Shown: in pieces, positions 493 to 62,854 of the stretch | How positions within the stretch are numbered: position 1 is the first letter of the stretch | How the letters are laid out: each line of letters begins with the position of its first letter | Origin: an uncultured Polyangiales bacterium | GTDB lineage: Bacteria > Myxococcota_A > Polyangia > Polyangiales > JADJMO01 | Length of the DNA stretch: 64,000 bases | Assembly: GCA_964624885.1 (NCBI GenBank) | Contig: CAZUZY010000004.1 | Location: 1,438-65,437, forward strand | Direction of reading: 5' to 3' | Position numbers and translations under genes: made by a program | The notes under the pieces: generated by a model | Seen by the model: only the letters and a program-made list of their open reading frames with translations | Told to the model about the DNA's origin: nothing | The model's database searches: none

Positions 493-951
493 CTATGCGG
501 TGTCATTGGCGACGGGGAGGACAGCTTCCTGGTAGTCCAGCAGGTCCCGCTCGTGCTGGCGGGCAAGCTCCGCCCGCAGGCGGCTCCAGTCAGCCGCCGG
601 TGGCACGTCGATAGCAACCATTTCCTCGGCGAGTTCCGACTCGCATCCACAGGACCGTGCCAGCTCTCGAATCTCGTGGAGGCGATCGGGCGGAGCCACA
701 ACCCGCACGGTTCCGTGCCCCGATGCCCGCACAAGTTCGGTCGCGACCAGGTCACCATTGGTGCGGCGGACCCGAACGTGATCGCCGAGGGCCACGCATG
801 CATAGAACGGGATGTTGTCGAGCACGTACACATTGCCGTCGTCTGACGAGGGAGTCGCCCAGACTCCCTCGCGCCGCACCGGCGGGTAGCCATCGGCGTC
901 GGGCTCGAGCTCAAAGACGATTTTCACATGGGTGGGGTCACTTGTTGTCAT
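493..951 (-). CDS. DUF4265-like immunity protein for the adjacent RHS-HNH toxin
   Basis: 152-aa ORF whose start overlaps the RHS stop by 14 nt (938-951). VKIVFELEPDADGYPP, GVWATP, YVLDNIPFYA, GDHVRV and SGHGTVRVV recall the DUF4265 family found beside polymorphic toxins (family call from memory). GC is lower than in the RHS body. Confidence 0.8.
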   Translation of the reverse strand: MTTSDPTHVKIVFELEPDADGYPPVRREGVWATPSSDDGNVYVLDNIPFYACVALGDHVRVRRTNGDLVATELVRASGHGTVRVVAPPDRLHEIRELARSCGCESELAEEMVAIDVPPAADWSRLRAELARQHERDLLDYQEAVLPVANDTA

Positions 952-1687
952 TGGCGGGCGTCGTCTTCGTCCAGCTGTGTGGCATCGACTGATGTCGAAC
1001 GTTGTCGCGCTTCTCGAGGTTGCACTTCGAACATAGCTTGTCCAGGTTCGTCTCGTCCCCAGCGCCGCCCTTGGACCGCGGGAATCGGTGGTCGCGGCGG
1101 AACTCGTTGGGGTCGGTCGGCTGGTTCTTGACGCTCTGCTTGGCCGGTTTCAGCTCGACCCCGCAGTTCTCGCAGTGCACCCCTCCCCGGGCTACCTCGG
1201 CATTCGTCTCCTGCTTGAGCTTGCGCGTGAAGTCCTTTCCGCCCCGTGGGCCACCAAAGGTGCCGACCTTGGGGATCTTCGCTTCTTCGTCCTTCTTGTG
1301 GAAAGTGTCCACCGCGGTCTTCGTCCCGGCAGCCATGTCGCGGACGCCCGACTGGACCAGCCCCACACCCAACCCCATGACAGCCGTTCCTGCGGCCACG
1401 GCGGGAATCGAGACCGGCGAGCTTGTCCCGGCCGTGGTGACAGTGGCCGCGCCACCGAGTCCAGTCAGGGCAGCCCCTGCGTAGGTCAGCTCGACACCGA
1501 TCCAGGTCTTGATCCCACCGGTGACCGTCTGGCCGACAGCCTCGCCGTACTTGAAGCCAGCGCTGTCGTTGGGCGAGATAGGGATGTACGTCCCTCCAGG
1601 GGTGAGGGCCTTCATCGTCCCGTAGGCGACGCCACCGAGGACATTCGCGACGGGGGCAATCTTCTCCTTCAGCCACTCGCCGAAGGC
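938..1687 (-). other. Variable C-terminal toxin region of the RHS protein: hydrophobic Gly/Ala-rich segment plus HNH nuclease
   Basis: It begins right after the DPSG motif (D codon at 1697-1699). A Gly/Ala-rich hydrophobic stretch (WIGVELTYAGAALTGLGGAATVTTAG...AVAAGTAVMGLGVGLV) comes first. Next is HCENCG...RRDHRFPRSKGG...NLDKLCSKCNLEKRDN, which is the CxxC...DH...N...CxxC pattern of HNH endonucleases. Confidence 0.75.
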
Positions 1688-4447
1688 ACCGCTTGGGTCC
1701 ACGAACTCCGTCGGGCGCAGGGCCGCGTAGGCGTACGCGTTTGAGTTGCCGAGCTCGGCCCCCACGGTGCGCGAGGGGTCGTGGACCGCAATGGGATCCG
1801 CGCTGGTCCACACGCCGAGCTCCGGGGCATAGGCGCGCATGCCCATCTGGTCGAGGCCGACGCCACCGTCGCGCGGGGTGTTGGCGTACTTGCGCGTGAC
1901 GTCGCCTGCGGAGTCGTATCGGGTGAAGCCGTAGGGGAAGACCGCGCTCGAGCCCTTGGCGACGCCGTCGCCGGACGTGGTCTCGGTGGCGGAGCCGATG
2001 GCGTCCGAGAACATGAGCTCGTCGGCATCGGTGAGCGTGAGGACCGTCCCGTCCTCGATGGGCTCCGCCTCGGCGCTGCTGTGGCCGCAGCCGGGCGTCC
2101 CGAGCGCTGCAAGGACGGCGAGGCAGAGAAGGGGCACCGCCACACGGGGCGCGGCCCGCCCGCCTTGGCGATGGCGGCCCACGAGCACGCCGACGGCCAC
2201 CAGGAGCGTAAGACCCAGGGCTGCGACCCCGCCTCGCGACGAGGGCTTCCGCGGCCCAGCGACGGCGCACCCAGATGGGGGCTCGGCCCTGCCGAGACCG
2301 TTGCCCTCGGCGAGCTTCGCGACCCGGCGCCCGCCATGGACGATGTACCGGACGACCTTGCCGTCCTTGATCTCGGCCCAGTCGTCGACGAAGAGCGTGG
2401 TGTGGTCGCCCGAGGCGTCGTGCTCGACGCGGACGCGGCGCATGCCGGCATGGTCGAAGAGCGAGCTCGACGTCGCGCCCGTCGTCCGGCTCGCGGCGAG
2501 GACGAGCTGGTCGGCGTCGTTCCAGGTGTAGAGCCGGTCGCCATCGTCGAGCATCCGGCCGCGCACGTCGTAGACGATCGTTCGCCCCCTGAACCCTGTG
2601 AGCGCGTGCGGGCCGGCGCCGGCCCCGTACGACATCGCGCCAACGTGGTGCTTGGGGTCCGTGCTCTTGCGCTCGAGGATGTTGCCCGAGGCGGAGTAGG
2701 CCCAGGAGGTCTCGCCCCAGCGACCGGCGACCTTGGTCAGCCGGTAGAGGTTGTCGAGCGTGTAGGCTTCCGAGCGGTCCTTGTCGGCCGCGACGCCCAC
2801 GCGCTTGTCACGCACCTCGGTGATGTTCCCGACAGGATCGAGCACCCACTCGAGCTGCTGGACGATGAGACCTGCCTTGGTGCGTGCGAGCGTCTCGATC
2901 CGGCGGCGGTCACCGTCGTAGCGCTGCCACTCCTCGACGCCCGTCGCGAACTTCCGGGAGAGCTCGCGCCCGTCGGCGTCGTGGTCGAAGAGGACGGCGT
3001 CCTTGCCGTAGCCCGAGATGAGGCCCCGCGGGTCGTACTGGATGCGAAGGGAGGAGCCGTCCGGGTAGCGGTGCAGGTACTTGCGGTCCTGGGCATCGAA
3101 CCCATTTCCCGTCGTCACCGTGGGCTGTCCGCCGAGCGTCAGGAGCGCCTTGGTGTTCCGGAGGCGCGCGTCGTACTCGAAGGCCATGAGGCCCGCGGGG
3201 CTCTTCGCGCTCGTGAGCATTCCGGGGCCGGAGCCCTCGTCGTAGGCCCGGAGGATCTCGGGCGCGCCGTCGCCGTTCCAGTCATCGGCCGTGGGCCGCT
3301 CGGCGAGGTCGAAGGCGTACTTCGAGACGACGCCGCCCGGGTGGGTGTGGGCGACGAGGTTGTCGCTCGTGTCGAACGCGAAGTGGTGCTTGCCTGCGTC
3401 GGGGTCGTCGACGAGGACGCGGCGACCCTTGCCGTCGTACTGGTAGCGCGCGGTGTGCCCCTCGGGGTCGACCCGGAAGAGCAGGGCGCCGGCGGCGTCG
3501 TACCCGTAGCTCGAGACGAGCGGCTTGCTGCCAAGCGTGCGGGTGATCGCGACAAGTCGACCGAGCCCGTCGTGCTGCTCGACGACCGGGGTGTGCTCGT
3601 AGGGCGTGCTCGGGTCGGTCTGGTTCGGGTCCCAGGACTTGGTGAGGAAGGGGAGAAACTCGGTGCGGCTCTCGAAGCCGAGCTGGGTCCTGCTCCGGAC
3701 GAGGCGGCCCGCGGCGTCGAAGAAGGCGTCGTCTCCGGGGCCGTCGGCGAAGAGCGGCGGCGCCTCGAGCGCGCTCGGGTCGACCCAACGAGCGCGCACC
3801 GTGCGGCGCGTGTTGCCTCGGGCATCGAAGAGGCCCACCGGAGAGAGCACGTACCTGCCACCGGCCGCTGGGCTCACGACGCCGCGCTTGCGCCCGAGTC
3901 CGTCGGTGAAGGCGACGCTGTCCTCGGTCTCGTCGTGTCCCGAGAAGATGCGCCCGAAGGTGCGGACCTTGGAGAGTGGCGCTCCGAGCTCGTAGCTGTA
4001 GCGGAGGGTGGGCCTCTCAGGGGAATCGCCCGGCTTGACGATGGCGGTGAGGCGCCCGAGCCCGTCGTACTCGAAGGAGGAGACGGCGCCGTTGAAGTTG
4101 GAGAATGTCTTCACCGTGCCGAGCAGATCGTCGTAGGTGGCCTGCTGGAGGAGCAGCTTGTCGGCCGAGACCTTGAGCCCCTCCGCGATCGGGAAGGTGC
4201 GCGACTCGTCCCACTTGAAGAGGCGCCCGCCGCCGCGGGCCGTCCTGACTTCCAGGGGGTTCCCGTCGGCGTCGTACTTCGAGGCGCTCAGCATCTCGAA
4301 GGCCTCGCCGCCGACCCAGGCTTCTTCCCGGACAAGGTCGCCCCGGACCACCTGGCCGAGCGGGAGGCCGGTGAAGGGCTCGCCGTCGTAGAAGTGCCGC
4401 TTGAAGCGCGCGCGCTTGCCCGCGGCGTCCGTGAGCTCCTCGCTCAT
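938..4447 (-). CDS. RHS-repeat / TcC-like polymorphic toxin with C-terminal HNH nuclease tip
   Basis: The ORF is 938..4543 (1201 aa); I prefer the ATG at 4447 (MSEELTD). It has many YD-type repeats (FEYDGLGRLTAIV, YGYDAAGALLFRVDPEGHTARYQYDGKGRRV, YTWNDADQLV). The RHS core ends in GMRAYAPELGVWTSADPIAV...RPTEFVDPSGAF and is followed by a variable tip. No signal peptide, PAAR or other delivery domain is present at the N terminus. Confidence 0.9.
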   Translation of the reverse strand: MSEELTDAAGKRARFKRHFYDGEPFTGLPLGQVVRGDLVREEAWVGGEAFEMLSASKYDADGNPLEVRTARGGGRLFKWDESRTFPIAEGLKVSADKLLLQQATYDDLLGTVKTFSNFNGAVSSFEYDGLGRLTAIVKPGDSPERPTLRYSYELGAPLSKVRTFGRIFSGHDETEDSVAFTDGLGRKRGVVSPAAGGRYVLSPVGLFDARGNTRRTVRARWVDPSALEAPPLFADGPGDDAFFDAAGRLVRSRTQLGFESRTEFLPFLTKSWDPNQTDPSTPYEHTPVVEQHDGLGRLVAITRTLGSKPLVSSYGYDAAGALLFRVDPEGHTARYQYDGKGRRVLVDDPDAGKHHFAFDTSDNLVAHTHPGGVVSKYAFDLAERPTADDWNGDGAPEILRAYDEGSGPGMLTSAKSPAGLMAFEYDARLRNTKALLTLGGQPTVTTGNGFDAQDRKYLHRYPDGSSLRIQYDPRGLISGYGKDAVLFDHDADGRELSRKFATGVEEWQRYDGDRRRIETLARTKAGLIVQQLEWVLDPVGNITEVRDKRVGVAADKDRSEAYTLDNLYRLTKVAGRWGETSWAYSASGNILERKSTDPKHHVGAMSYGAGAGPHALTGFRGRTIVYDVRGRMLDDGDRLYTWNDADQLVLAASRTTGATSSSLFDHAGMRRVRVEHDASGDHTTLFVDDWAEIKDGKVVRYIVHGGRRVAKLAEGNGLGRAEPPSGCAVAGPRKPSSRGGVAALGLTLLVAVGVLVGRHRQGGRAAPRVAVPLLCLAVLAALGTPGCGHSSAEAEPIEDGTVLTLTDADELMFSDAIGSATETTSGDGVAKGSSAVFPYGFTRYDSAGDVTRKYANTPRDGGVGLDQMGMRAYAPELGVWTSADPIAVHDPSRTVGAELGNSNAYAYAALRPTEFVDPSGAFGEWLKEKIAPVANVLGGVAYGTMKALTPGGTYIPISPNDSAGFKYGEAVGQTVTGGIKTWIGVELTYAGAALTGLGGAATVTTAGTSSPVSIPAVAAGTAVMGLGVGLVQSGVRDMAAGTKTAVDTFHKKDEEAKIPKVGTFGGPRGGKDFTRKLKQETNAEVARGGVHCENCGVELKPAKQSVKNQPTDPNEFRRDHRFPRSKGGAGDETNLDKLCSKCNLEKRDNVRHQSMPHSWTKTTPANDNK

Positions 4448-4566
4448 GCGAAGGAGGCCTTCGCGTGGGCACACACCTCGAGACCCTGGCGGACTTCCCA
4501 CGGCGAGGTTCGGGCTCAACGTGTCGCGTGCCGAGGCACCCACCGCCCGGCACGGAGCACGCCATC

Positions 4567-5340
4567 ATGAGCAAGTCGAACAAGTCCTCGAAGAAGGCGC
4601 ACGGCACCAAGAAGAGCACCAAGGCTGCGGCCGCGAAGAGTGCGCCCAAGACGTCCCCGGTCAAGGACGCCAAGCAGGTTGGCTCAAAGGCGCGCGGTGA
4701 CAAGGACGCGGCGCGGCCGCTGACGTCCAGCACGGCGGCGGGGGCGCCGACGACCAAGGTCGGCAAGGCCACGCCCGCGTCGGCGACCCAGAAGACGGCC
4801 ACGTTGCCGGTGACGCAGGAAGTCACCGCGCCGAAGGCGCGCAAGGAGACCCCCGCGTCCGCGAACTCCCGAGCACGCGCCCTGGTCCTCGACGAGTCCG
4901 ACCCCAAGAAGGCCATCGCGGCCCTCCAGAAGTTCGGCTCGACGCAGCTCCAGCGGGCGTTCGGAGACCTCTTCGGCGCCGAGACCACGAGCCGCAACGT
5001 GATGTACCTCCGGAGCGCCATCTCCAAGGGCCTGCTCGACCGGGCGGCAGGTATCCCGCTCGCCGCGCCCGCCGAGGAGAAGAAGGCCGCACGCAACAAG
5101 ATCGTCACCGAGCCCAAGCCGAAGGAGCCGCGCCCGCGGGATCCGCGGCTCCCGGCCGTCGGCACCACGATCGAGCGCCTCTACAAGGGCGAGGCGCTCC
5201 GGGTGAAGGTGCTCGAGGAGGGTTTCCTCTTCAAGGGCACGACGTACCCGAGCCTCTCCGCGCTCGCCAAGTCCCTCACGGGTTGCTCCACGAACGGGTT
5301 CCTCTTCTTCCAGCTCATCGAGCGCCCGGCGAAGGCCTGA
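4567..5340 (+). CDS. DUF2924-like protein with Lys/Ala/Pro-rich N-terminal tail; mobile-element accessory protein
   Basis: The ORF is 4465..5340; I prefer the ATG at 4567 (MSKSNKSSKKAHGTKKSTKAAAAK). The C-terminal GTTIERLYKGEALRVKVLEEGFLFKGTTYPSLSALAKSLTGCSTNGFLFFQL matches my memory of DUF2924, which usually sits beside recombinases. It lies directly upstream of the integrase on the same strand. Confidence 0.75.
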   Translation: MSKSNKSSKKAHGTKKSTKAAAAKSAPKTSPVKDAKQVGSKARGDKDAARPLTSSTAAGAPTTKVGKATPASATQKTATLPVTQEVTAPKARKETPASANSRARALVLDESDPKKAIAALQKFGSTQLQRAFGDLFGAETTSRNVMYLRSAISKGLLDRAAGIPLAAPAEEKKAARNKIVTEPKPKEPRPRDPRLPAVGTTIERLYKGEALRVKVLEEGFLFKGTTYPSLSALAKSLTGCSTNGFLFFQLIERPAKA

Positions 5341-5351
5341 GGGGTCCCGCC

Positions 5352-6578
5352 ATGAGCCAGCCCAAGGCCACCAAGGGACAGCTCAAGTGGTGGGGCAAGT
5401 CCTACTCGGTCAGGGTGCGCTTCGCCGACGGCTCGCGTCGGTGGGTGCCCCTACCCGAGGGGCTCTCCCACGCCGAGGCGGTCGCGCGCGCAGAGGTCGT
5501 CGCCGCTGAGGCGCGGCGGCGGGCGTCACCGGTCGACCTCACCACGCTCACGCAGCCGGGCGAGACCCTCGCCGAGTGGAGCGAGCGGTGGCTCGCGAGC
5601 CGCGTGCAGGCCGGCTATCGCAGCACCAAGGACGACCGCTCGCGCCTGAAGGTGCACATCCTACCGCTCATCGGCGGCGTGAAGATCGCCGCGCTCTCGA
5701 CCGATGACGTCGAGCGCGTGCGCGACCGGCTGGATGCCCGTGTACGCGCCGGGGAGATCGCGTGGGGCACCGCCCAGCTCACGTGGGCGTTGCTCAAGTC
5801 CATGTGCAAGGCCGCGCGGCTCTCGAAGGATCGCGAGCTGCGGGTCCGGCGAGACGATCCCACGCGCGACGTCGCCCCGCCGGATCGTGGGATCGTGAAG
5901 GCGAAGCAGTTCCTCTATCCGAACGAGTTCTTGAAGCTCGTGTCCTGCGAGGAGGTGCCGCTGGCCTGGAGGCGCGCTGTCGTGTTGTCGGTGTACCTCC
6001 TGCTCCGGCAGTCCGAGCTCCAGGCCCTCGCCTGGGACGACCTCGACCTCGAGCACGGCGTCGCCCACGTCCACCGCTCGGTGGACCGCGCAGACCGTGC
6101 CGCCGACAAGACCACCAAGACAGAGACGACTCGCAGACTTGCGATCGAGCCCGCGCTGATGCCTCTCCTGCTCGCCATGCACGAGCAGGCAGGGAAGCCG
6201 AAGAGCGGGCGCGTGCTCGCCGACCTTCCACCCTGGTACGACCTCGCCAAAGGGCTCCGGGCCTACCTCGCGCTCGCGGGCGTCGACCGGCCCGAATTGC
6301 TGGCACGCGGGCCCACGCGGCGGTGGATCACCTTCCACGACTTGAGGGCCACCGGGATCACGTGGATGGCCGTGCGCGGGGACGACCCGCTCAAGATCCG
6401 GCAGCGCGCGGGGCACCAGCACATCGCCACCACCGAGAAGTACATCCGGCTCGCCGAAGACGTGCGGGTTGGGTTTGGCGAGGCGTTCGCGCCACTCCCC
6501 CACCTCGCTCATACGTCAGCGCAAGGTCGACCGTGCGACGGTGACAATGGTCACGGACCTCATGTGACGATCTGGTGA
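5352..6578 (+). mobile_element. Tyrosine recombinase / phage-type integrase
   Basis: The ORF is 5283..6578; the ATG at 5352 (MSQPKATKGQLKWWGKSYSVRV) gives an SAM-like N-terminal domain. The catalytic region has LLLRQSEL, HDLRATGITWMAV and RAGHQHIATTEKYIR (the R...HxxR...H...Y pattern). Confidence 0.9.
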
Positions 6579-6769
6579 AGCTGCGCTTGTGTTGGGCGTC
6601 GACCCGTTGCATCACCGGCCCACTCGCCGAATCCTCGGGAGCCTCGGGGGGGGGCCGCGATCTCCGTCGTAGGGGTTCTCCGGAGCCACCAGGTGGCGTG
6701 GACTGCAACACCACAACGGCGCGCGCGATCCTCGCAGCACTTTGCCATCACACAGTAGCCGGGGGCCTC

Positions 6770-7561
6770 ATGAACAGTTTTCGGAATCTCACGCAGTACG
6801 CCGAGTGCCATCTGGTCTCGAACAACACGGGTACGACTCTGTACCAGTGGTTCACGGATTGGATGTGCTGCGACGGCGTCGATGCCATCCGTGCCGTCCT
6901 CAAGGCCAAGAACGCCACAAGCGCCAACTTCAGCTGGCAACTGGCGATCCAGTACGCACCCGTCCGGTCGGACAATCCCGACGCTCCGGCTGCTATCGGC
7001 AACGGCCAGACAGGCTCCGGCGAGTATCAGACCGGCGACCTCTCCCTGGCCGCACAGGCCGACGCACCCACACATCGCCTCTTTCGTCTCGGCATCGCCT
7101 ACACGAGCGTCAATGCGAGTGTGCAACAAGCCGATGTGAGCCTACAGGCGAGCTACAAGAGTGTCGCGACTCCCCTGGGCATGGCGCGGGCAACGCTTGC
7201 GATCACCGACAGCAGCAACAAGTACGAAGTCCTGACGCCGTGGATTCCCGCGATCTACATGGCCAAGGTGAAAGCTGCCTTCGTCCTGAATAGCATCAAC
7301 CCCTCCAACGGCAACTTCAAGTACCGACTCGCATACCAGACCGCCGGGACGACCGTCACGCAGCCCAGCGCTTGGACGGATATCGAGTCCGGGTGGACTC
7401 AGCCAGGCAACGGAGTAACCTACAGCGAGCGCAACACGGGCGAGGTCACGGTGACGACCTCGGAGATGTGGTTCCGGCTCGGCGTCGCCTACACCCAGGC
7501 CGGTGGGGTTGATACGAACTATACAGCCGTGCTCGAGGCCGTTCTGTCTTGCAGGGCCTAG
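6770..7561 (+). CDS. Hypothetical beta-rich protein made of two homologous halves (ORFan)
   Basis: The ORF is 6575..7561; I prefer the ATG at 6770 (MNSFRNLTQ). There is no signal peptide. GC is about 57 percent with A/T-ending codons atypical for the window. The halves share NFSWQLAIQYA...LFRLGIAYTS with NFKYRLAYQTA...MWFRLGVAYTQ. No family recognised. Confidence 0.65.
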   Translation: MNSFRNLTQYAECHLVSNNTGTTLYQWFTDWMCCDGVDAIRAVLKAKNATSANFSWQLAIQYAPVRSDNPDAPAAIGNGQTGSGEYQTGDLSLAAQADAPTHRLFRLGIAYTSVNASVQQADVSLQASYKSVATPLGMARATLAITDSSNKYEVLTPWIPAIYMAKVKAAFVLNSINPSNGNFKYRLAYQTAGTTVTQPSAWTDIESGWTQPGNGVTYSERNTGEVTVTTSEMWFRLGVAYTQAGGVDTNYTAVLEAVLSCRA

Positions 7562-7569
7562 GGGGAAGA

Positions 7570-8442
7570 ATGCCGAGAATCCAACGCCCAAGCCTTCCAA
7601 ACCCCGCTGTGGCATCAGTCTTCGACCCCGCAGCCGTGCTCTTTCCAACGAACGATTTCCCGGGCACACCAACCGACTTTTTGGGTCCTGGCTCCATGGA
7701 TCCAATTGGCTTCGACGACTCGTTGGATTTTGGAATCTCCTTCGATGATGCGTCCGGTCTTCCCACTGGCCCCTCGGGCGTCGGAGGGGAGACCGAGGAC
7801 CTTGGCGGATGGATCTCCAGCAGACTTGGACGGTCGTCCACGGAGGTCATTCCGATCTCGCCGTGGCCGACAAATGGGGACGGCACCCCTGGAACTCCCA
7901 TCGGCCCGCTCGCACCGTCAAGGGGACTCGGGCCCAACAACTACCCAACGGCGCTCGGAACGGTAGAGGTCTGGGAGATTGCGCCGCGAAACCAGGGTGG
8001 CGGACGGACAACCACCCAGAAGACGGTGCTCGTCGAAGTGGTTCCCGCTGCAAAGAGCGCAGCGCCAAGCCCTTCTTCTCCAAGCTCTCCGCAGCTCACG
8101 GACGGCTGGATTTCGGGACGCGGCTCGACGGCCGCGGAAAGCGCCGCAATGAACGCGCTCGTGCCGAAGAAGCCTGACAGCACGCCCGACCCAACGCGCG
8201 ACCCCGACCGTCTCTCCTGGGCCAGCGCATCGGACTTTGCGAGAGCGATGCGGGGCTTTCGGCCCCGCTCGCCTGCTTCTGACGCTGGGAGTGACGAGAC
8301 CCGCGACGCCCACGGGGCCGTCGCAATTCTCGACCCATGGAGCGAGACGGGATATCGCGCCGTGCGGCCCCGGTCACACACCGCTGCGTCTGTTACCGTG
8401 ACGTATGCTTCGGACAGCCCGGACTTCGGTGCGCCTCGCTGA
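7570..8442 (+). CDS. Hypothetical Pro/Ser/Gly/Thr-rich, probably disordered protein (ORFan)
   Basis: The ORF is 7549..8442. The ATG at 7570 is preceded by gggggaag. It is the only long ORF in this interval, on the same strand and with the same low GC as its neighbours. It has no recognisable domain and no signal peptide. Confidence 0.5.
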   Translation: MPRIQRPSLPNPAVASVFDPAAVLFPTNDFPGTPTDFLGPGSMDPIGFDDSLDFGISFDDASGLPTGPSGVGGETEDLGGWISSRLGRSSTEVIPISPWPTNGDGTPGTPIGPLAPSRGLGPNNYPTALGTVEVWEIAPRNQGGGRTTTQKTVLVEVVPAAKSAAPSPSSPSSPQLTDGWISGRGSTAAESAAMNALVPKKPDSTPDPTRDPDRLSWASASDFARAMRGFRPRSPASDAGSDETRDAHGAVAILDPWSETGYRAVRPRSHTAASVTVTYASDSPDFGAPR

Positions 8443-9508
8443 GGCAACGGTCCTTGCCTCGCTTGCGGCTTGCGTTGCAGGTCCGTCCGCAACGACCCCG
8501 CCGCGCAACGGAAGACCGACCACATCAAACCATCCACGGACCATCATCATTCCTGGCGCACAGGCCTCCAAAGAGGTTCACGCGAAGCTCAAGAATCGCG
8601 GACTCGTGCTTGTGCGCCAGAAACTCAATGGACTCGAGGTGACGTGCCCGGCCGTCGGGCGGGAGGTCTACGGTGTTGTTGACCTTCCTGCCCCATCTTG
8701 GCTCGAGTTGCCCAAACTGACGGCTGAAGAGCTCGCGGAGAATAGTGACGGCTCGGGCGAACTGTCGGCGCAACGTCTTCGGGTTACGCGTCGGCTGTCT
8801 GCCCGGGTCCCCGTCCCGCTTAGCGACCGTTGGCTTGACCACTGCATAGAGGCCACGCACTACGTTGATCGTATCGATGTGGACGTCGACAAGGGTGGCT
8901 CGGAGATCGTCAGACGTCTGGTTCTCGTACCGATCGGCGCCACGGCTCTGCCGCCTGACTGTCGAGGGGACTTTCGCCTCGCCTCTGATATCCCCGATCT
9001 ATGCGTGAAACGAGCCCCACACACATGCAGGATCGGCGACAAGGACTGCCTCGCGCTGTGTGCCGCGGGAGACGCAGGCTCGTGCGAGCGCGCCTCCAGC
9101 GCAGGCGGTCTGACCTTCGGCAAGCTGACGAAGGAGCAGGCTAGTCTCGCGGAGCAGGCCTGCAATCTAAACTCATCTCATTGCTGTTACCTCGCGACGC
9201 TGCTGACATACGACTCATCGGCCTCACAGCGTATCGAGGATGTCGCCACTGGTGGATGCGCGAACGCACAACACAGCTGCTGTCTGGCCCTGGCGATTGG
9301 TCGCCAGAACGGGGGCGCGAAGGAGGGCTCTTCGGCGGCCTACGCGAGCGCCTGCGAGGCTGGCGCAGAAGGGGCGTGTCTACTCTCAGCACGTGCCGCC
9401 GAGTCGGTGGGCAAGTTCGAACTGGCGCAACGCCACGCAGCCGTCGCCTGTCAGGCCGAGGTTCCAGGAGCATGCGAAGAACTCCGTCGTCTCACCAAGG
9501 TCAAGTGA
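8405..9508 (+). CDS. Lipoprotein with C-terminal Cys-paired Sel1/Hcp-like repeats (ORFan)
   Basis: MLRTARTSVRLAEATVLASLAACVAG provides a signal peptide and lipobox. The C-terminal 160 aa carry repeated A..AC..G...(S/A)C motifs (CLALCAAGDAGSCE, AEQACNLNSSHCC, ATGGCANAQHSCC, ASACEAGAEGAC, AVACQAEVPGAC). GC is about 58 percent. Confidence 0.7.
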   Translation: MLRTARTSVRLAEATVLASLAACVAGPSATTPPRNGRPTTSNHPRTIIIPGAQASKEVHAKLKNRGLVLVRQKLNGLEVTCPAVGREVYGVVDLPAPSWLELPKLTAEELAENSDGSGELSAQRLRVTRRLSARVPVPLSDRWLDHCIEATHYVDRIDVDVDKGGSEIVRRLVLVPIGATALPPDCRGDFRLASDIPDLCVKRAPHTCRIGDKDCLALCAAGDAGSCERASSAGGLTFGKLTKEQASLAEQACNLNSSHCCYLATLLTYDSSASQRIEDVATGGCANAQHSCCLALAIGRQNGGAKEGSSAAYASACEAGAEGACLLSARAAESVGKFELAQRHAAVACQAEVPGACEELRRLTKVK

Positions 9509-9704
9509 CCCGTTTTGATGTCGTCTTGAGCCCGCGGACGACAACGGCGTCGGAACGAGAGGTACTTCAAGACACTCGGTAACGGGTCGAGTTTGCTCGG
9601 CATTCCCTCCTCCGTTCTCCTGGTCGGGCCGTAGGGGCTGACAGCCAATCACGCCAGCCCACGCGCAGCCCGATGGCCCACCTCTCGCCAAGAACTCCGC
9701 CCAC

Positions 9705-10045
9705 TCCGCGCTGGGCTGCGCGGGCTGCCCACGTCCATCCGCGGGGTTGGCCACGCCGCACATCGCCTTGGGCACACACGCGACCCCGCCCGGCCCACGC
9801 GATCCCCATGAATCCTCGCCCCGTCGTCGACAACACTCGGTGGGACAACGTCAGCCCGCGATCAGCCTGCGGCACCGCATCCCGGCCATTTCTTCGCGCG
9901 CTTCGCGCTGGGCTGGCCGGGCTGCCGGCGTCCATCCGCGGGGTTGGCCGCGCCGCTCATCGCCCTCGGCACACACGCAACCCGCACCGGCCCACGCAAA
10001 CCCCCTGAATCCTCGCCCCTTCGTCGACAACATCCGCTGGGACAA
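9705..10045. repeat. Two direct copies of a ~144-bp repeat (9705-9848 and 9902-10045), period 197 bp
   Basis: Base-by-base comparison by hand found about 20 mismatches in 144 and no indels (about 86 percent identity). Both copies contain ATCCGCGGGGTTGGCC, GGCACACACGC, CCGGCCCACGC, TGAATCCTCGCCCC and TCGTCGACAACA. They lie in an 825-bp gap with no credible CDS. Confidence 0.9.
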
Positions 10046-12377: not shown

Positions 12378-13187
12378 ATGCTGGTCCGCGTGCGCTCCTT
12401 CCGCTCCGCGTTGGTGCTGTTCTTCGTCGCGTGCACGTCGCGTGAGGCCGTCGAGCCTGCGCCCGAAGCCGGGACCTGCACCGATCTGTTCGGCGTCCCC
12501 AACGAGAAGACCGGTCTCGACGACGCGACCTGTCGACCGACGTGCGGCTGCGGCGATGCCGCCTGGATCGCGCCCACGTGGACTCCCGATCGGATCGCCG
12601 AGCTGCGCTCGTGGACGCTCCTCGATCCCCCCGCCGAGCTCACCGCGGACCCGTACGCCTCCCCTCCGACCACCCCGAGTGGGGTGTGCGCCGTGCAGGT
12701 CGTCGACCGCGCGAAGAAGACCTACCGGCTGGCCTCGTTCGCCACGCGCGCCGAGGCCACGGCGAGCGGCGCGACCATGACCCACGACGACCACTGCGGG
12801 CTCTGCTCCTCCCTCGCCGACCTCGCCGTGTACGCCAGCCAGCCCGATCTCACAGATCCTGTGCGGAGCTGCGGCCTCGACGCCGGCACCGACCTCGAGA
12901 AGAACGTCGTGTGTCTGCAGAAGCTGGGCTTCACCCGGCCGTGCGCGCAGATCTGGGCCTACAACACGCGCAACACCCGCGCCCAGTGCTTCGGCCTCTG
13001 CCTGTCGCTGCTCACGGCGCCCTACCACCAAGAGGACGGTGGCTTGAACGCCTGCCTCCTCTGCGACGAGCAGAAGAGCGGGCCGGTGTTCAAGGCCATC
13101 GCGGGGAGGACCCGCCGCAACACCGGCGTGCCCTCCTCCATGTGTCGTCCCTGCGCGGAGGTGGTGCGCCTCGAGCACCGCTACTGA
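12378..13187 (+). CDS. Cys-rich lipoprotein, function unknown
   Basis: MLVRVRSFRSALVLFFVACTS provides a lipobox. The mature part contains 17 further Cys residues (TCRPTCGCG, HCGLC, ACLLCDEQ, MCRPC). Confidence 0.75.
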   Translation: MLVRVRSFRSALVLFFVACTSREAVEPAPEAGTCTDLFGVPNEKTGLDDATCRPTCGCGDAAWIAPTWTPDRIAELRSWTLLDPPAELTADPYASPPTTPSGVCAVQVVDRAKKTYRLASFATRAEATASGATMTHDDHCGLCSSLADLAVYASQPDLTDPVRSCGLDAGTDLEKNVVCLQKLGFTRPCAQIWAYNTRNTRAQCFGLCLSLLTAPYHQEDGGLNACLLCDEQKSGPVFKAIAGRTRRNTGVPSSMCRPCAEVVRLEHRY

Positions 13188-13378
13188 ACACGGCCACACA
13201 ATCCCTGACGATTCCTGTACACGCACGCCTGGGCCTCGCGCCACGAACCACGCCCGCATGCGGCCTGACGCCCGCGGCACGCCCCCGTGGCAACACTGTG
13301 CACGCCATCGTCGACTCGAGGACCTGGACCACGGCGTCGCACGTTGCTCGGCCGCGCGACGCCTGATATCCCCCGCCG

Positions 13379-60807: not shown

Positions 60808-61151
60808 ACCGGATCTTGCGCGCGCTGCAGAGCTCGTCGCCGGACGTGGAGGCCTGCGCCCTCATCTCCGAGGACGGCCTCATGATCGCGAGCGCGCTGC
60901 CCCAACACGTCGACGAGTCACGCATCGCCGGCATGAGCGCCACGCTCTCGAGCCTCGGCGCGCGCGCCGCGAGCGAGCTCGAGCGCGGAGAGGTGCAGGA
61001 GGTCCTGGTGCGGGGCACCGAGGGCTACGCCGCGATGATGAGCTCAGGCCACGGCACCCTCTTGCTCGGGCTCGCCAGCAAACAGGCCAAGCTGGGCCTG
61101 CTGTTCCTCGACATGCGTCGAGCCATCGAAGACCTACGCAAGGTTCTGTGA
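60786..61151 (+). CDS. Roadblock/LC7 (MglB-like) domain protein
   Basis: 121 aa. The typical pattern is present: VEACALISEDGLMIASALP...ESRIAGMSATLSSLGARAASELERGEVQEVLVRGTEGYAAMM. It overlaps the kinase 3' end by 22 nt. Confidence 0.88.
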   Translation: MSRVDSLNRILRALQSSSPDVEACALISEDGLMIASALPQHVDESRIAGMSATLSSLGARAASELERGEVQEVLVRGTEGYAAMMSSGHGTLLLGLASKQAKLGLLFLDMRRAIEDLRKVL

Positions 61152-61161
61152 GAGGATCATC

Positions 61162-61923
61162 ATGTCCAACGCGACCAATGTCACGCTGTTCGAGGGCCCC
61201 GGCCACAAGAACATCCTCCTCGAGGACTTCAACAAGGGCGGTCTCGCCGTCCAGGCGAACCAGCACATCGTCATCCACAACAAGGCCGGCATGATCCTCG
61301 ATCCGGGAGGGCACAAGGTCTACTCGAAGGTCCTCTCGGCGACCCTGCAGCAGCTGGGCAGCGCCAAGCTGCAGTACCTGTTCCTCTCGCACCAGGATCC
61401 GGACATCGTCGCGGCCACCAATGGCTGGCTGATGACCACCGACGCGACGGCCTACTGCTCGGCCCTGTGGACCCGCTTCGTGCCGCACTTCGGTCTGGAT
61501 CGACTGGTCGAGACGCGTCTCCTGCCGATCCCGGACGAGGGTATGAAGATCGACCTGGATGGGTGCCTCCTCGAGATCATCCCGGCCCATTTCCTTCATT
61601 CACCTGGCAACTTCCAGGTCTACGATCCGGTCAGCAAGGTGCTCTACACCGGCGATCTCGGCGCCTCGCTCGGCGCGCCGGGCTGGGAGGTGACCGACTT
61701 CGAGGCGCATCGCGCCTACATGGACGGGTTCCACGCCCGGTACATGGCGGGCAACGCGGCCATGCGCGCGTGGGTGAAGCGCGCGAGCAAGCTGGACATC
61801 GAGACCTTGGCGCCGCAGCACGGCAGCGTGTTCAAGGGCAAGGACATGGTCGAGAAGTTCTTCCGCTGGGCCGAGACGTTCCAGTGCGGCCTGGACCTGA
61901 TCGACAGGTTCTACGGAGGCTGA
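61162..61923 (+). CDS. Stand-alone metallo-beta-lactamase-fold domain of the flavodiiron / oxygen-binding di-iron (ODP) type
   Basis: 253 aa. NQHIVIHNKAGMILDPGG, YLFLSHQDPDIVAA, IPAHFLHSPGNFQVYDPVSKVLYTGDLGAS and LAPQHGSVFKG line up with the diiron MBL domain of flavodiiron proteins (from memory). There is no flavodoxin domain. Confidence 0.75.
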   Translation: MSNATNVTLFEGPGHKNILLEDFNKGGLAVQANQHIVIHNKAGMILDPGGHKVYSKVLSATLQQLGSAKLQYLFLSHQDPDIVAATNGWLMTTDATAYCSALWTRFVPHFGLDRLVETRLLPIPDEGMKIDLDGCLLEIIPAHFLHSPGNFQVYDPVSKVLYTGDLGASLGAPGWEVTDFEAHRAYMDGFHARYMAGNAAMRAWVKRASKLDIETLAPQHGSVFKGKDMVEKFFRWAETFQCGLDLIDRFYGG

Positions 61924-61924
61924 G

Positions 61925-62854
61925 ATGCCCACCCTCTTGGTGGTCGAGGACGAGCCCGTGCTTCGCGCGTCGGTGGTGCGCGGGCTCAGCAAGCTCGCGG
62001 GCGTGGACATCGTCGACGCCGGCACCAAGGCCGAGGCGCGCAAGCTCATCGCCGCCATGCCACCGAGCATGCTCATCTCGGACCTCGATCTCCCCGACGG
62101 CTCGGGGGTCGAGCTCCTCGTCGATCTCGAGCGGCGGGGGCTGCGGATCCCCATCGTCTTCGCCTCGGGTTTCCTCCGGCGCTTCGAGATCCCCGCGCGC
62201 GAGGACATCATCCTGCTCGAGAAGCCGGTCACCCTCGCCACGCTGCGCAAGCTGGTGACCGAACACCTGGGCGGCCGCTCGGAGCACACCTCCCCCTTCG
62301 GACTGGCCGACTACGTGCAGCTCGCGGGCCTCGGACGCCGCTCGGTCCACCTCGTCGTGAGCCGGGAGGGCGTGCAGGTGGGTGAGGTCGTGATCCGGGA
62401 CGGAGAGGCGTGGCATGCCCACGACGCCAAGGGCGACGGACCCGTCGCGTTCCGCCGCCTCGTGACGGCGCGGGACGTGACGGTGGAAGCGACGCACCCG
62501 ACCCCGACCGCTCGCACGCTGTCGGGCTCCTGCGAGCAGCTCCTGCTCGAGACAATGCGCCTCGAAGACGAGCAGAGCCGCGACGAGGAGGCGGCCGATC
62601 TGGCGTGGGACGATCTCGCGACCCGTCGACGCTCCTCGCTGCCGCCGGCGGCGCCGGCTCGCCCCTCCGAGCCACGGACGGCGGCCTCGGTGCAGCGGTC
62701 GTTCGAGGAGCTCTACGAGCGCGGTGTCGAGGCCCTCCTCGACAAGCGCTACGACGACGCGTTCACCGCGTTCAGCGCGGCCGCGGAGCTCCACCACACG
62801 CCGAGCCTCGACGTGAACCTGAGCCGGCTGCGCTCGATGGGATACGGTCGATGA
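61925..62854 (+). CDS. Response regulator receiver fused to a DUF4388 (PATAN-like) domain
   Basis: 309 aa. The receiver is LLVVEDEPVLR...MLISDLDLPDGSG...EKPV. Next comes FGLADYVQLAGLGRRSVHLVVSREG..VGEVVIRDGEAWHAHDAKG.GPVAFRRLV, which resembles DUF4388. The tail is TPR-like. Confidence 0.8.
   Translation: MPTLLVVEDEPVLRASVVRGLSKLAGVDIVDAGTKAEARKLIAAMPPSMLISDLDLPDGSGVELLVDLERRGLRIPIVFASGFLRRFEIPAREDIILLEKPVTLATLRKLVTEHLGGRSEHTSPFGLADYVQLAGLGRRSVHLVVSREGVQVGEVVIRDGEAWHAHDAKGDGPVAFRRLVTARDVTVEATHPTPTARTLSGSCEQLLLETMRLEDEQSRDEEAADLAWDDLATRRRSSLPPAAPARPSEPRTAASVQRSFEELYERGVEALLDKRYDDAFTAFSAAAELHHTPSLDVNLSRLRSMGYGR

Follow-up and report, generated by a model that had tools for sequence, protein, structure and literature searches.

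The locus considered here lies on a 64-kb stretch of DNA from an uncultured Polyangiales bacterium (hereafter the window), in which three adjacent open reading frames (ORFs) follow a tyrosine integrase gene, and it raises the question of whether these genes (ORF1, ORF2 and ORF3; positions 6770–9508) are a dedicated three-gene system or a local assortment of accessory genes. The original prediction, made from the sequence alone, described three co-directional ORFans forming the cargo of the integrase; the three plus-strand ORFs lie exactly at the positions it gave. The reading favoured here, to which we give an even chance, is that the 2.7-kb stretch of low GC (guanine plus cytosine) content is a patchwork of accessory genes and not a dedicated system. 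ORF1 and ORF2 would represent an accessory pair that is found repeatedly, with ORF1 as the conserved and ORF2 as the rapidly diverging member, and ORF3 would be an independently distributed envelope lipoprotein that is the neighbour of the pair by chance in this strain. Confidence is high for the anatomy of the locus, and the mechanism proposed below is tentative and rather doubtful. The idea of a novel three-gene system is, in our opinion, to be dropped, and the trio regarded as an ordinary accessory patch.

The evidence that carries this reading comes from the contexts in which relatives of the three genes are found. Ten independent ORF1 contexts were compared, comprising the window (W), contexts of Myxococcales type (L001-3, L004/5, L012/13, L014/15 and L016/17), a Thermoanaerobaculia context (L019/20), and L021, L032-34 and L035. 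All-against-all comparison of their flanking genes with blastp and phmmer found the ORF1 homologue alone to be common to the contexts, and the neighbours of ORF1 homologues have essentially no Pfam matches, even at lenient thresholds. The complete trio is confined to contigs of the same strain (99.8–100% identity), and in the nine other contexts an ORF1 homologue is never near an ORF3 homologue. The trio is thus absent outside the strain, which is the outcome that the original prediction had itself named as speaking against a unit. The four homologues of ORF3 (58–97% identity) are found in two contexts, after RecBCD-SpoVR-peptidase S41 genes (L007) and after a GST gene (L008-11), with no ORF1, ORF2 or integrase nearby and no flanking gene in common with the window.

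An integrase is indeed present upstream of the trio, and an RHS toxin gene is nearby, as had been noticed, but the association of the genes with an integrase is loose. Seven of the ten ORF1 contexts have no integrase within 10 kb, and the integrases of the other three are mutually unrelated at E ≤ 0.05. Transposases occur in three contexts and giant RHS or FG-GAP proteins in three, two contexts resemble plain chromosome, and those of L016 and L032 contain no mobile-element genes. The arrangement in the window is like that of integrase-associated genomic islands in having atypical accessory genes directly downstream of a tyrosine integrase and beside a polymorphic RHS toxin locus. It is unlike them in that no tRNA gene lies within the 64 kb, no conserved cargo is present, and no direct repeats of at least 16 nt, and no att sites, connect candidate left ends (1–950, 4380–4620 and 6480–6800) with downstream sequence. 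In addition, the integrase and the adjacent DUF2924 gene have a host-like codon composition (GC content at third codon positions, GC3, of 0.86–0.92), contrasting with that of ORF1–3. The module of DUF2924 and tyrosine integrase may mark a recombination-prone spot, and is not demonstrably the carrier of ORF1–3.

These results also bear on the alternative that ORF1–3 form one co-transcribed operon, delivered as cargo by the integrase and devoted to one new accessory function (defence, competition or predation), which we regard as unlikely. The genes share one strand and one low-GC patch beside the RHS toxin gene, and their spacing is tight, as had been described. The stop codon of ORF1 (TAG) is separated from the start of ORF2 by an 8-nt gap with a purine-rich, Shine-Dalgarno-like spacer (GGGGGAAGA), and ORF2 overlaps ORF3 by 38 nt if ORF3 starts at the ATG at 8405, or by 14 nt from the GTG at 8429 that is used in the public gene call. 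No promoter-like or terminator-like sites are found on the plus strand between the three genes. Local co-transcription of ORF1–3 is likely on the basis of this spacing; a function common to the three in this strain is conceivable, though nothing speaks for it. Some ORF1 homologues also lie within 10 kb of defence candidates, which occur in three contexts at a distance of several kb (RhuM/PDC-S05, a TmtA-like ATPase and a weak AbiEii match). Against a single operon function stand the restriction of the trio to one strain, the occurrence of ORF3 homologues on their own elsewhere, the absence of any PADLOC match for ORF1–3 at E ≤ 1, and an integrase of different composition without detectable att sites.

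The composition of the patch sets it apart from its surroundings. The window as a whole has a GC content of 70.5%, and 6770–9508 has 63.2% (61.5, 64.7 and 63.2% in ORF1, ORF2 and ORF3 respectively), the lowest among 613 windows of equal size (z = −5.8, with the standard deviation taken from non-overlapping windows); the earlier figure of ~58% was too low, though it pointed to the right patch. GC3 is 0.80, 0.68 and 0.67 in ORF1, ORF2 and ORF3, compared with 0.81–0.97 in neighbouring genes. The low GC content of ORF1 resides mainly in codon positions 1 and 2, and hence in its amino-acid composition. A low-GC dip of ~3 kb that opens at the ORF1 homologue is seen in most loci; the regions upstream of ORF1 homologues contain no conserved motif, and a wider scan for loci with an alignment of the family (A1) recovered only loci already known. 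None of the three products has an enzyme, nuclease, ATPase or regulator domain in Pfam, PHROG, NCBIfam or PADLOC, in agreement with the original prediction that no such function, and no known defence module, could be recognised. Each of the three has the look of a protein that binds or assembles and has no enzymatic activity.

The most useful product of the analysis is the ORF1 family, which combines hundreds of clusters, a confident two-jelly-roll prediction and a recurrent, hypervariable and disordered neighbour. ORF1 is not an ORFan: a word-indexed search returned 34 homologues (54–66% identity, ~258 aa) from Myxococcales metagenome-assembled genomes (MAGs) and metagenomes, and a profile search of 1.84 billion representatives matched 423 clusters at E ≤ 1e-3, of which 118 reached E ≤ 1e-30. 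The length of the members is nearly always 245–270 aa, at least two copies that are 56% identical to each other occur in one MAG, and one member comes from a Thermoanaerobaculia MAG. The ATG start of ORF1 agrees with the N-termini of 27 aligned homologues as well as with the public gene calls for identical contigs. ORF1 has no match in Pfam, NCBIfam, PHROG or PADLOC, 111 diverse relatives have no consistent Pfam or PHROG match, and comparison with PDB sequences, using single sequences and the profiles A1 and A2, gave matches at chance level only.

The fold of ORF1 and its internal duplication, both proposed from the sequence, are well supported. The AlphaFold2 (AF2) model, calculated from a 28-sequence alignment, is all-β with a predicted local distance difference test (pLDDT) score of 92.7 and a predicted template modelling (pTM) score of 0.83, and contains 15 strands, eight in residues 11–131 and seven in residues 134–262. 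The two halves of the family align with each other in hhalign at a probability of 99.9% (E = 2.3e-31, 24% identity), and T-x-W, Q-x-A and F-R-L-G-x-A-Y motifs occur at matching positions of both. The duplication is visible even in the DNA, as a 23-nt repeat (7082–7104 and 7472–7494) encoding FRLGIAYT and FRLGVAYT respectively. Foldseek searches against the PDB returned two-jelly-roll or tandem β-sandwich proteins at E-values of 4e-6 to 1e-4 with template modelling (TM) scores of 0.2–0.3, including the ColG tandem collagen-binding domains, the SIDT1 ectodomain, the capsid proteins P3 of tectivirus PR772 and VP2 of infectious bursal disease virus (IBDV), tandem CBM22, PNGase F and PHM; matches in BFVD were generic only.

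Krupovic et al. 2022 (PMC8812541) have compared four double jelly-roll (DJR) families, namely PNGase F, PHM, DUF2961 and the DJR major capsid proteins. Foldseek ranks three of these kinds of protein highly for ORF1 (PNGase F, PHM and a DJR capsid protein of a tectivirus; E 1e-5 to 1e-4), and the model and these matches place two jelly-roll-like barrels in its single chain. On these grounds ORF1 would belong, in a loose sense, to the double jelly-roll architectural class, with no equivalence of inter-domain geometry claimed. It differs from known members in its low TM-scores, with a relative domain arrangement not shown to be equal, and in having no sequence or Pfam relation to them. Its halves are moreover still clearly homologous in sequence, and it has no conserved catalytic residues. 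Membership of the PNGase F/PHM clan (CL0612) or of DUF2961 was considered and rejected, as neither ORF1 nor its 111 relatives have a corresponding Pfam match, and conservation reaches 90% for none of the Asp, Glu and His residues across these relatives, which counts against an enzyme of PNGase F or PHM type. The ORF1 family is thus a sizeable unannotated family in a known fold class, with an unusual trace of duplication in its sequence.

The best-ranked PDB matches, the ColG s3a-s3b and CBM22-1/CBM22-2 tandems, consist, like ORF1, of two consecutive β-sandwiches of ~120–130 residues each. Together with the glycan-binding PNGase F they suggest an alternative in which ORF1 acts alone as a tandem module of lectin-like or carbohydrate-binding kind, released non-classically (for example by vesicles or lysis), with ORF2 being an unrelated, fast-evolving gene; Trp, Gln and Arg are conserved at equivalent positions in both halves. 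We consider this improbable. The conserved residues may be mere core determinants of the fold, and all TM-scores are ≤0.3. The ColG and CBM22 modules belong to larger, secreted enzymes of several domains, whereas ORF1 has no signal peptide and no Pfam match to a carbohydrate-binding module, and the members of its family almost always stand alone, without the enzyme or surface-anchor fusions usual for such modules. The uniform length, conserved termini, paralogue arrays and lack of fusions in the family are better explained by an assembling subunit than by a carbohydrate-binding module. In the reading favoured here ORF1 would be a non-enzymatic scaffold, oligomerising and/or binding a ligand.

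An assembling protein with two jelly-rolls brings to mind a relic or live small integrated virus of which ORF1 is the DJR capsid protein, an explanation that we regard as very unlikely. It would account for two jelly-roll domains in a single chain of ~260 aa, for PR772 P3 and other capsid proteins among the structural matches, for the very uniform length and the termini conserved through the last residue, and for the integrases within 10 kb in three of the ten contexts; the lack of a packaging ATPase has a precedent in FLiP-like DJR viruses (PMC8812541). However, whole-chain superposition of ORF1 on P3 gives TM-scores of only 0.20–0.23 with a root-mean-square deviation of 16–17 Å, so that the same barrel orientation as in DJR capsid proteins is not found. 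No relative occurs in IMG/VR (searched with A1 patterns), in 50,697 phage genomes (INPHARED) or in PHROGs (searched with 111 members), and tblastn of the queries run against phage and plasmid sequences gave no match. There is no Rep, FtsK/HerA ATPase or penton gene, no neighbour is conserved between the ten contexts and no contig is circular. The four tandem ORF1 paralogues of L019 and the absence of mobile-element genes around the L016 and L032 copies also speak against a virus.

A more far-reaching possibility, in which the ORF1 family would be a fifth, so far overlooked lineage of double-jelly-roll type with its founding domain duplication still legible in the sequence, and would form a capsid-like or shell-like assembly with its disordered partner on mobile DNA, is a long shot. 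The protein would then be a domesticated or ancestral capsomer, an equally remote suggestion, with hosts among Myxococcales, Thermoanaerobaculia and other unassigned metagenomic bacteria. If true, the family would offer a surviving example of the transition from one jelly-roll to two that has been discussed for the origin of Bamfordvirae capsids. Should ORF1 oligomerise as DJR proteins do, it would bear on the origin of double jelly-roll capsomers, and should it not be an assembler of this kind, it would still be a sizeable unannotated family meriting a name and a structure.

Some features of the family were noted on the side. Myxococcales members end in C-S-C-R at the extreme C-terminus and distant relatives begin with M-S/T-C; the corresponding terminal regions of the window gene are 6770–6790 and 7547–7558, and the relatives concerned are P0072, P0111, P0112 and P0160. 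These termini, being conserved through the last residue, may be functionally engaged. Two longer, fused relatives, P0112 and P0160, have in common an extra C-terminal domain of ~170 residues (residues 243–419 and 265–432 respectively) with the pattern …SPYGDTYDSPS…WIGYD.STG.W.VY…VSFDG…FSTL, for which no Pfam match was found. In the Thermoanaerobaculia MAG, four tandem ORF1 paralogues of 261, 255, 419 and 269 aa (L019, 509–6052, and L020) precede genes for a 303-aa protein very rich in Cys and for a protein of 290 aa; the array converges on the gene of an FG-GAP/TcdB-mid/RHS giant of 1983 aa.

The second member of the proposed pair, ORF2, is the gene for which the description as an ORFan is accurate, since it matches itself alone among 5.8 billion proteins; for ORF3, with its four homologues, that description is partly wrong. 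It has, as predicted, a Pro/Ser/Gly/Thr-rich composition (44% for these four residues; 13% Pro, 12% Ser, 11% Gly, 11% Ala, 8% Thr and 8% Asp, with no Cys) and no export signal, its N-terminus not being hydrophobic. A similar Gly/Pro-rich gene lies downstream of the ORF1 homologue in four of the nine other contexts (L005, L012, L014 and L016), on the same strand and 19–50 nt past the ORF1 homologue in L005, L012 and L016, and ~690 nt past it in L014. The products of these four genes are 265–499 aa long with 17–21% Gly, 6–16% Pro and 0% Cys, and their GC3 is 0.59–0.67; with ORF2 included, the ranges are 11–21% Gly, 6–16% Pro and 0% Cys.

Similarity between these partners was assessed from Smith-Waterman scores compared with 200 shuffles. 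The partners of L005 and L014 are the most similar (z = 8.7), and their ORF1 homologues are the closest pair (67% identity), so that partner similarity follows ORF1 similarity. The partners of L012 and L016 give z = 4.8, with an exact GGVTDPVP in both, and those of L016 and L005 give z = 3.3. Short motifs picked out by eye, and hence post hoc, are FDP within the first 40 residues of the W, L016 and L005 proteins, as well as VPKK/VWKK-x-P, P-x-SD and DP-V/W-P/S. ORF1 may engage the disordered ORF2 product through short linear motifs, for which the N-terminal FDP and the C-terminal P-x-SD and DP-V/W-P/S are candidates. The pairing of ORF1 with a disordered partner encoded downstream recurs as an uncharacterised accessory unit, most clearly in Myxococcales.

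That ORF2 is no gene at all, and that the frame between ORF1 and ORF3 is open by chance or is what remains of a decayed gene, is highly improbable. It has no homologue, its frame signal is weak (GC at codon positions 1, 2 and 3 of 0.63, 0.63 and 0.68) and about one chance frame of such length is expected (by estimate) per 64-kb window at this GC content. However, it starts 8 nt past the stop codon of ORF1, with a purine-rich spacer before it, and takes up the entire gap; genes of the same placement and odd composition are present in four other loci, where chance is a very unlikely source of a 499-codon frame at 62% GC; and it is predicted by public gene callers. ORF2 is, we conclude, a real gene, whose product probably belongs to a class of very rapidly evolving, disordered proteins linked to ORF1. 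A single population single-nucleotide polymorphism was found in it, too few for a ratio of nonsynonymous to synonymous substitution rates.

The third gene, ORF3, fits the lipobox pattern [LVI][ASTVI][GAS]C with MLRTARTSVRLAEATVLASLAAC, and T/A-A-C is aligned in all full-length homologues. The alignment shows conservation of the lipobox (L-A/T-A-C), a Pro-rich linker, the N-terminal domain and every later Cys. Five C-x7-C pairs (residues 219/227, 253/261, 285/293, 317/325 and 349/357) recur with a period of 32–34 residues, and residues 214–365 are modelled as ten paired helices, with pLDDT values of only 55–84. Foldseek returned weak matches to solenoids of tetratricopeptide repeats (TPR) or Sel1-like repeats (SLR) (E 0.05–0.26), with HcpB (1klx) at rank 49 and no match at E ≤ 1e-3. 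The product would be located in the envelope, and its C-terminal half may be a disulfide-stapled, TPR/Sel1-like solenoid that serves as an adaptor for protein–protein interaction.

In HcpB and HcpC of Helicobacter, every repeat carries two Cys with seven residues between them, which is the signature of the Hcp family, and the period of Hcp/Sel1 repeats is ~36 residues. ORF3 is like these proteins in its export signal and in predicted, repeated helix pairs that each bear C-x7-C, and is unlike them in its shorter period, its lipoprotein nature and an additional, unmodelled N-terminal domain of ~170 residues; its structural matches, all at E > 0.05, come from a low-confidence model. The earlier description as a lipoprotein with Sel1/Hcp-like repeats is thus a fair one as to the lipobox and the five Cys pairs, whereas membership of the family is not established and the Sel1 profile is not matched. 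ORF3 would add a lipoprotein variant of the predicted disulfide-stapled repeat of Hcp type beyond Epsilonproteobacteria. The GC3 of its homologues is 0.80–0.83, compared with 0.67 for the copy in the window, which therefore looks recently imported, possibly along with ORF1 and ORF2.

Several observations weigh against the favoured reading. The tight spacing and shared low GC3 of ORF2 and ORF3 (0.68 and 0.67) suggest that these two genes arrived and are transcribed together, and a local functional link between them is possible. L001 and L021 have partners (514 and 506 aa respectively) of another type that is not Gly-rich. ORF2 shows no similarity to the other downstream genes in BLASTP or phmmer, and its best shuffle-based comparison, with L016_319, gives z = 2.7 with six of 200 shuffles scoring as well, so that homology of ORF2 to the other partners is weakly supported. 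For ORF3, the AF2 model has an overall pLDDT of 48, with residues 210–367 (helix pairs) at 55–84, and no Pfam family, Sel1 (PF08238) included, is matched at E ≤ 1. Finally, no annotated homologue provides a function for ORF1, ORF2 or ORF3.

The features of the locus are collected in Table 1.

Table 1. Positions of the three genes, their domains and motifs, and neighbouring features in the window
Feature	Position	Strand	Evidence and remarks
ORF1, 263 aa	6770..7561	+	Large unnamed family of stand-alone proteins with two homologous, 8-stranded, jelly-roll-like β-sandwich domains (homologues, AF2, Foldseek)
ORF1 N-terminal β-sandwich, residues 1–132, 8 strands	6770..7165	+	AF2 secondary structure; hhalign against C-terminal half
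ORF1 C-terminal β-sandwich, residues 133–263, 7 predicted strands	7166..7558	+	Duplicate of first domain
ORF2, 290 aa, Gly/Pro/Ser/Thr/Ala/Asp-rich, Cys-free, probably disordered	7570..8442	+	Composition; position after ORF1
ORF3 lipoprotein, 367 aa (359 aa from GTG 8429)	8405..9508	+	N-terminal domain, C-terminal helical repeats
ORF3 lipobox L-A-A-C, residues 20–23	8462..8473	+	Alignment of homologues
ORF3, five C-x7-C pairs on predicted helix pairs	9059..9475	+	Cys pattern, alignment, AF2
Tyrosine integrase, 408 aa	5352..6578	+	PF00589 (1.4e-12), phrog_1 (2e-45); GC3 0.86
DUF2924 protein, 257 aa, directly upstream of integrase	4567..5340	+	PF11149 (5.8e-24); GC3 0.92
RHS-repeat toxin with C-terminal HNH nuclease	938..4543	-	PF05593, PF14279, PF01844; divergent from DUF2924 gene
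DUF4265 gene, downstream of RHS toxin gene	493..951	-	PF14085 in precomputed annotation of identical contig L022
Two tandem 197-nt copies, 80% identical	9651..10044	.	Non-coding gap between ORF3 and next gene

The gene that follows the ORF1 pair differs from locus to locus, being ORF3 in the window, a DUF922 gene in L004 and a gene for a 122-aa protein in L016. In L001, the gene in the ORF2 position is followed by a 131-aa gene (12819–13214) whose Gly/Tyr/aromatic-rich product ends in ...GVGWRF and looks like a small outer-membrane β-barrel.

Downstream of ORF3, ~830 nt without frame-specific composition hold the tandem 197-nt copies. No further copy of this repeat was found in the window or in unrelated loci, and it has no Rfam match, as is the case for the window as a whole; on either strand its folding energy is no better than that of shuffled sequences. 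Upstream, mentions of DUF2924 in the literature searched are confined to three papers on Wolbachia prophages or gene transfer agents.

The start of the RHS toxin gene in the public gene call is 4447, and the DUF4265 gene is presumably its immunity gene. The only other stretches of the window below 66% GC are 1–1500 and 61001–62000, the first of which covers the HNH tip of the toxin and the DUF4265 gene, as one would expect of a toxin-immunity tip that can be exchanged. Contig L022 is identical to the window except at 22 positions, all of them in a 200-nt segment of the RHS core (3384–3584); 18 of these 22 differences are synonymous, and the segment has the appearance of a tract of recombination or gene conversion between RHS copies.

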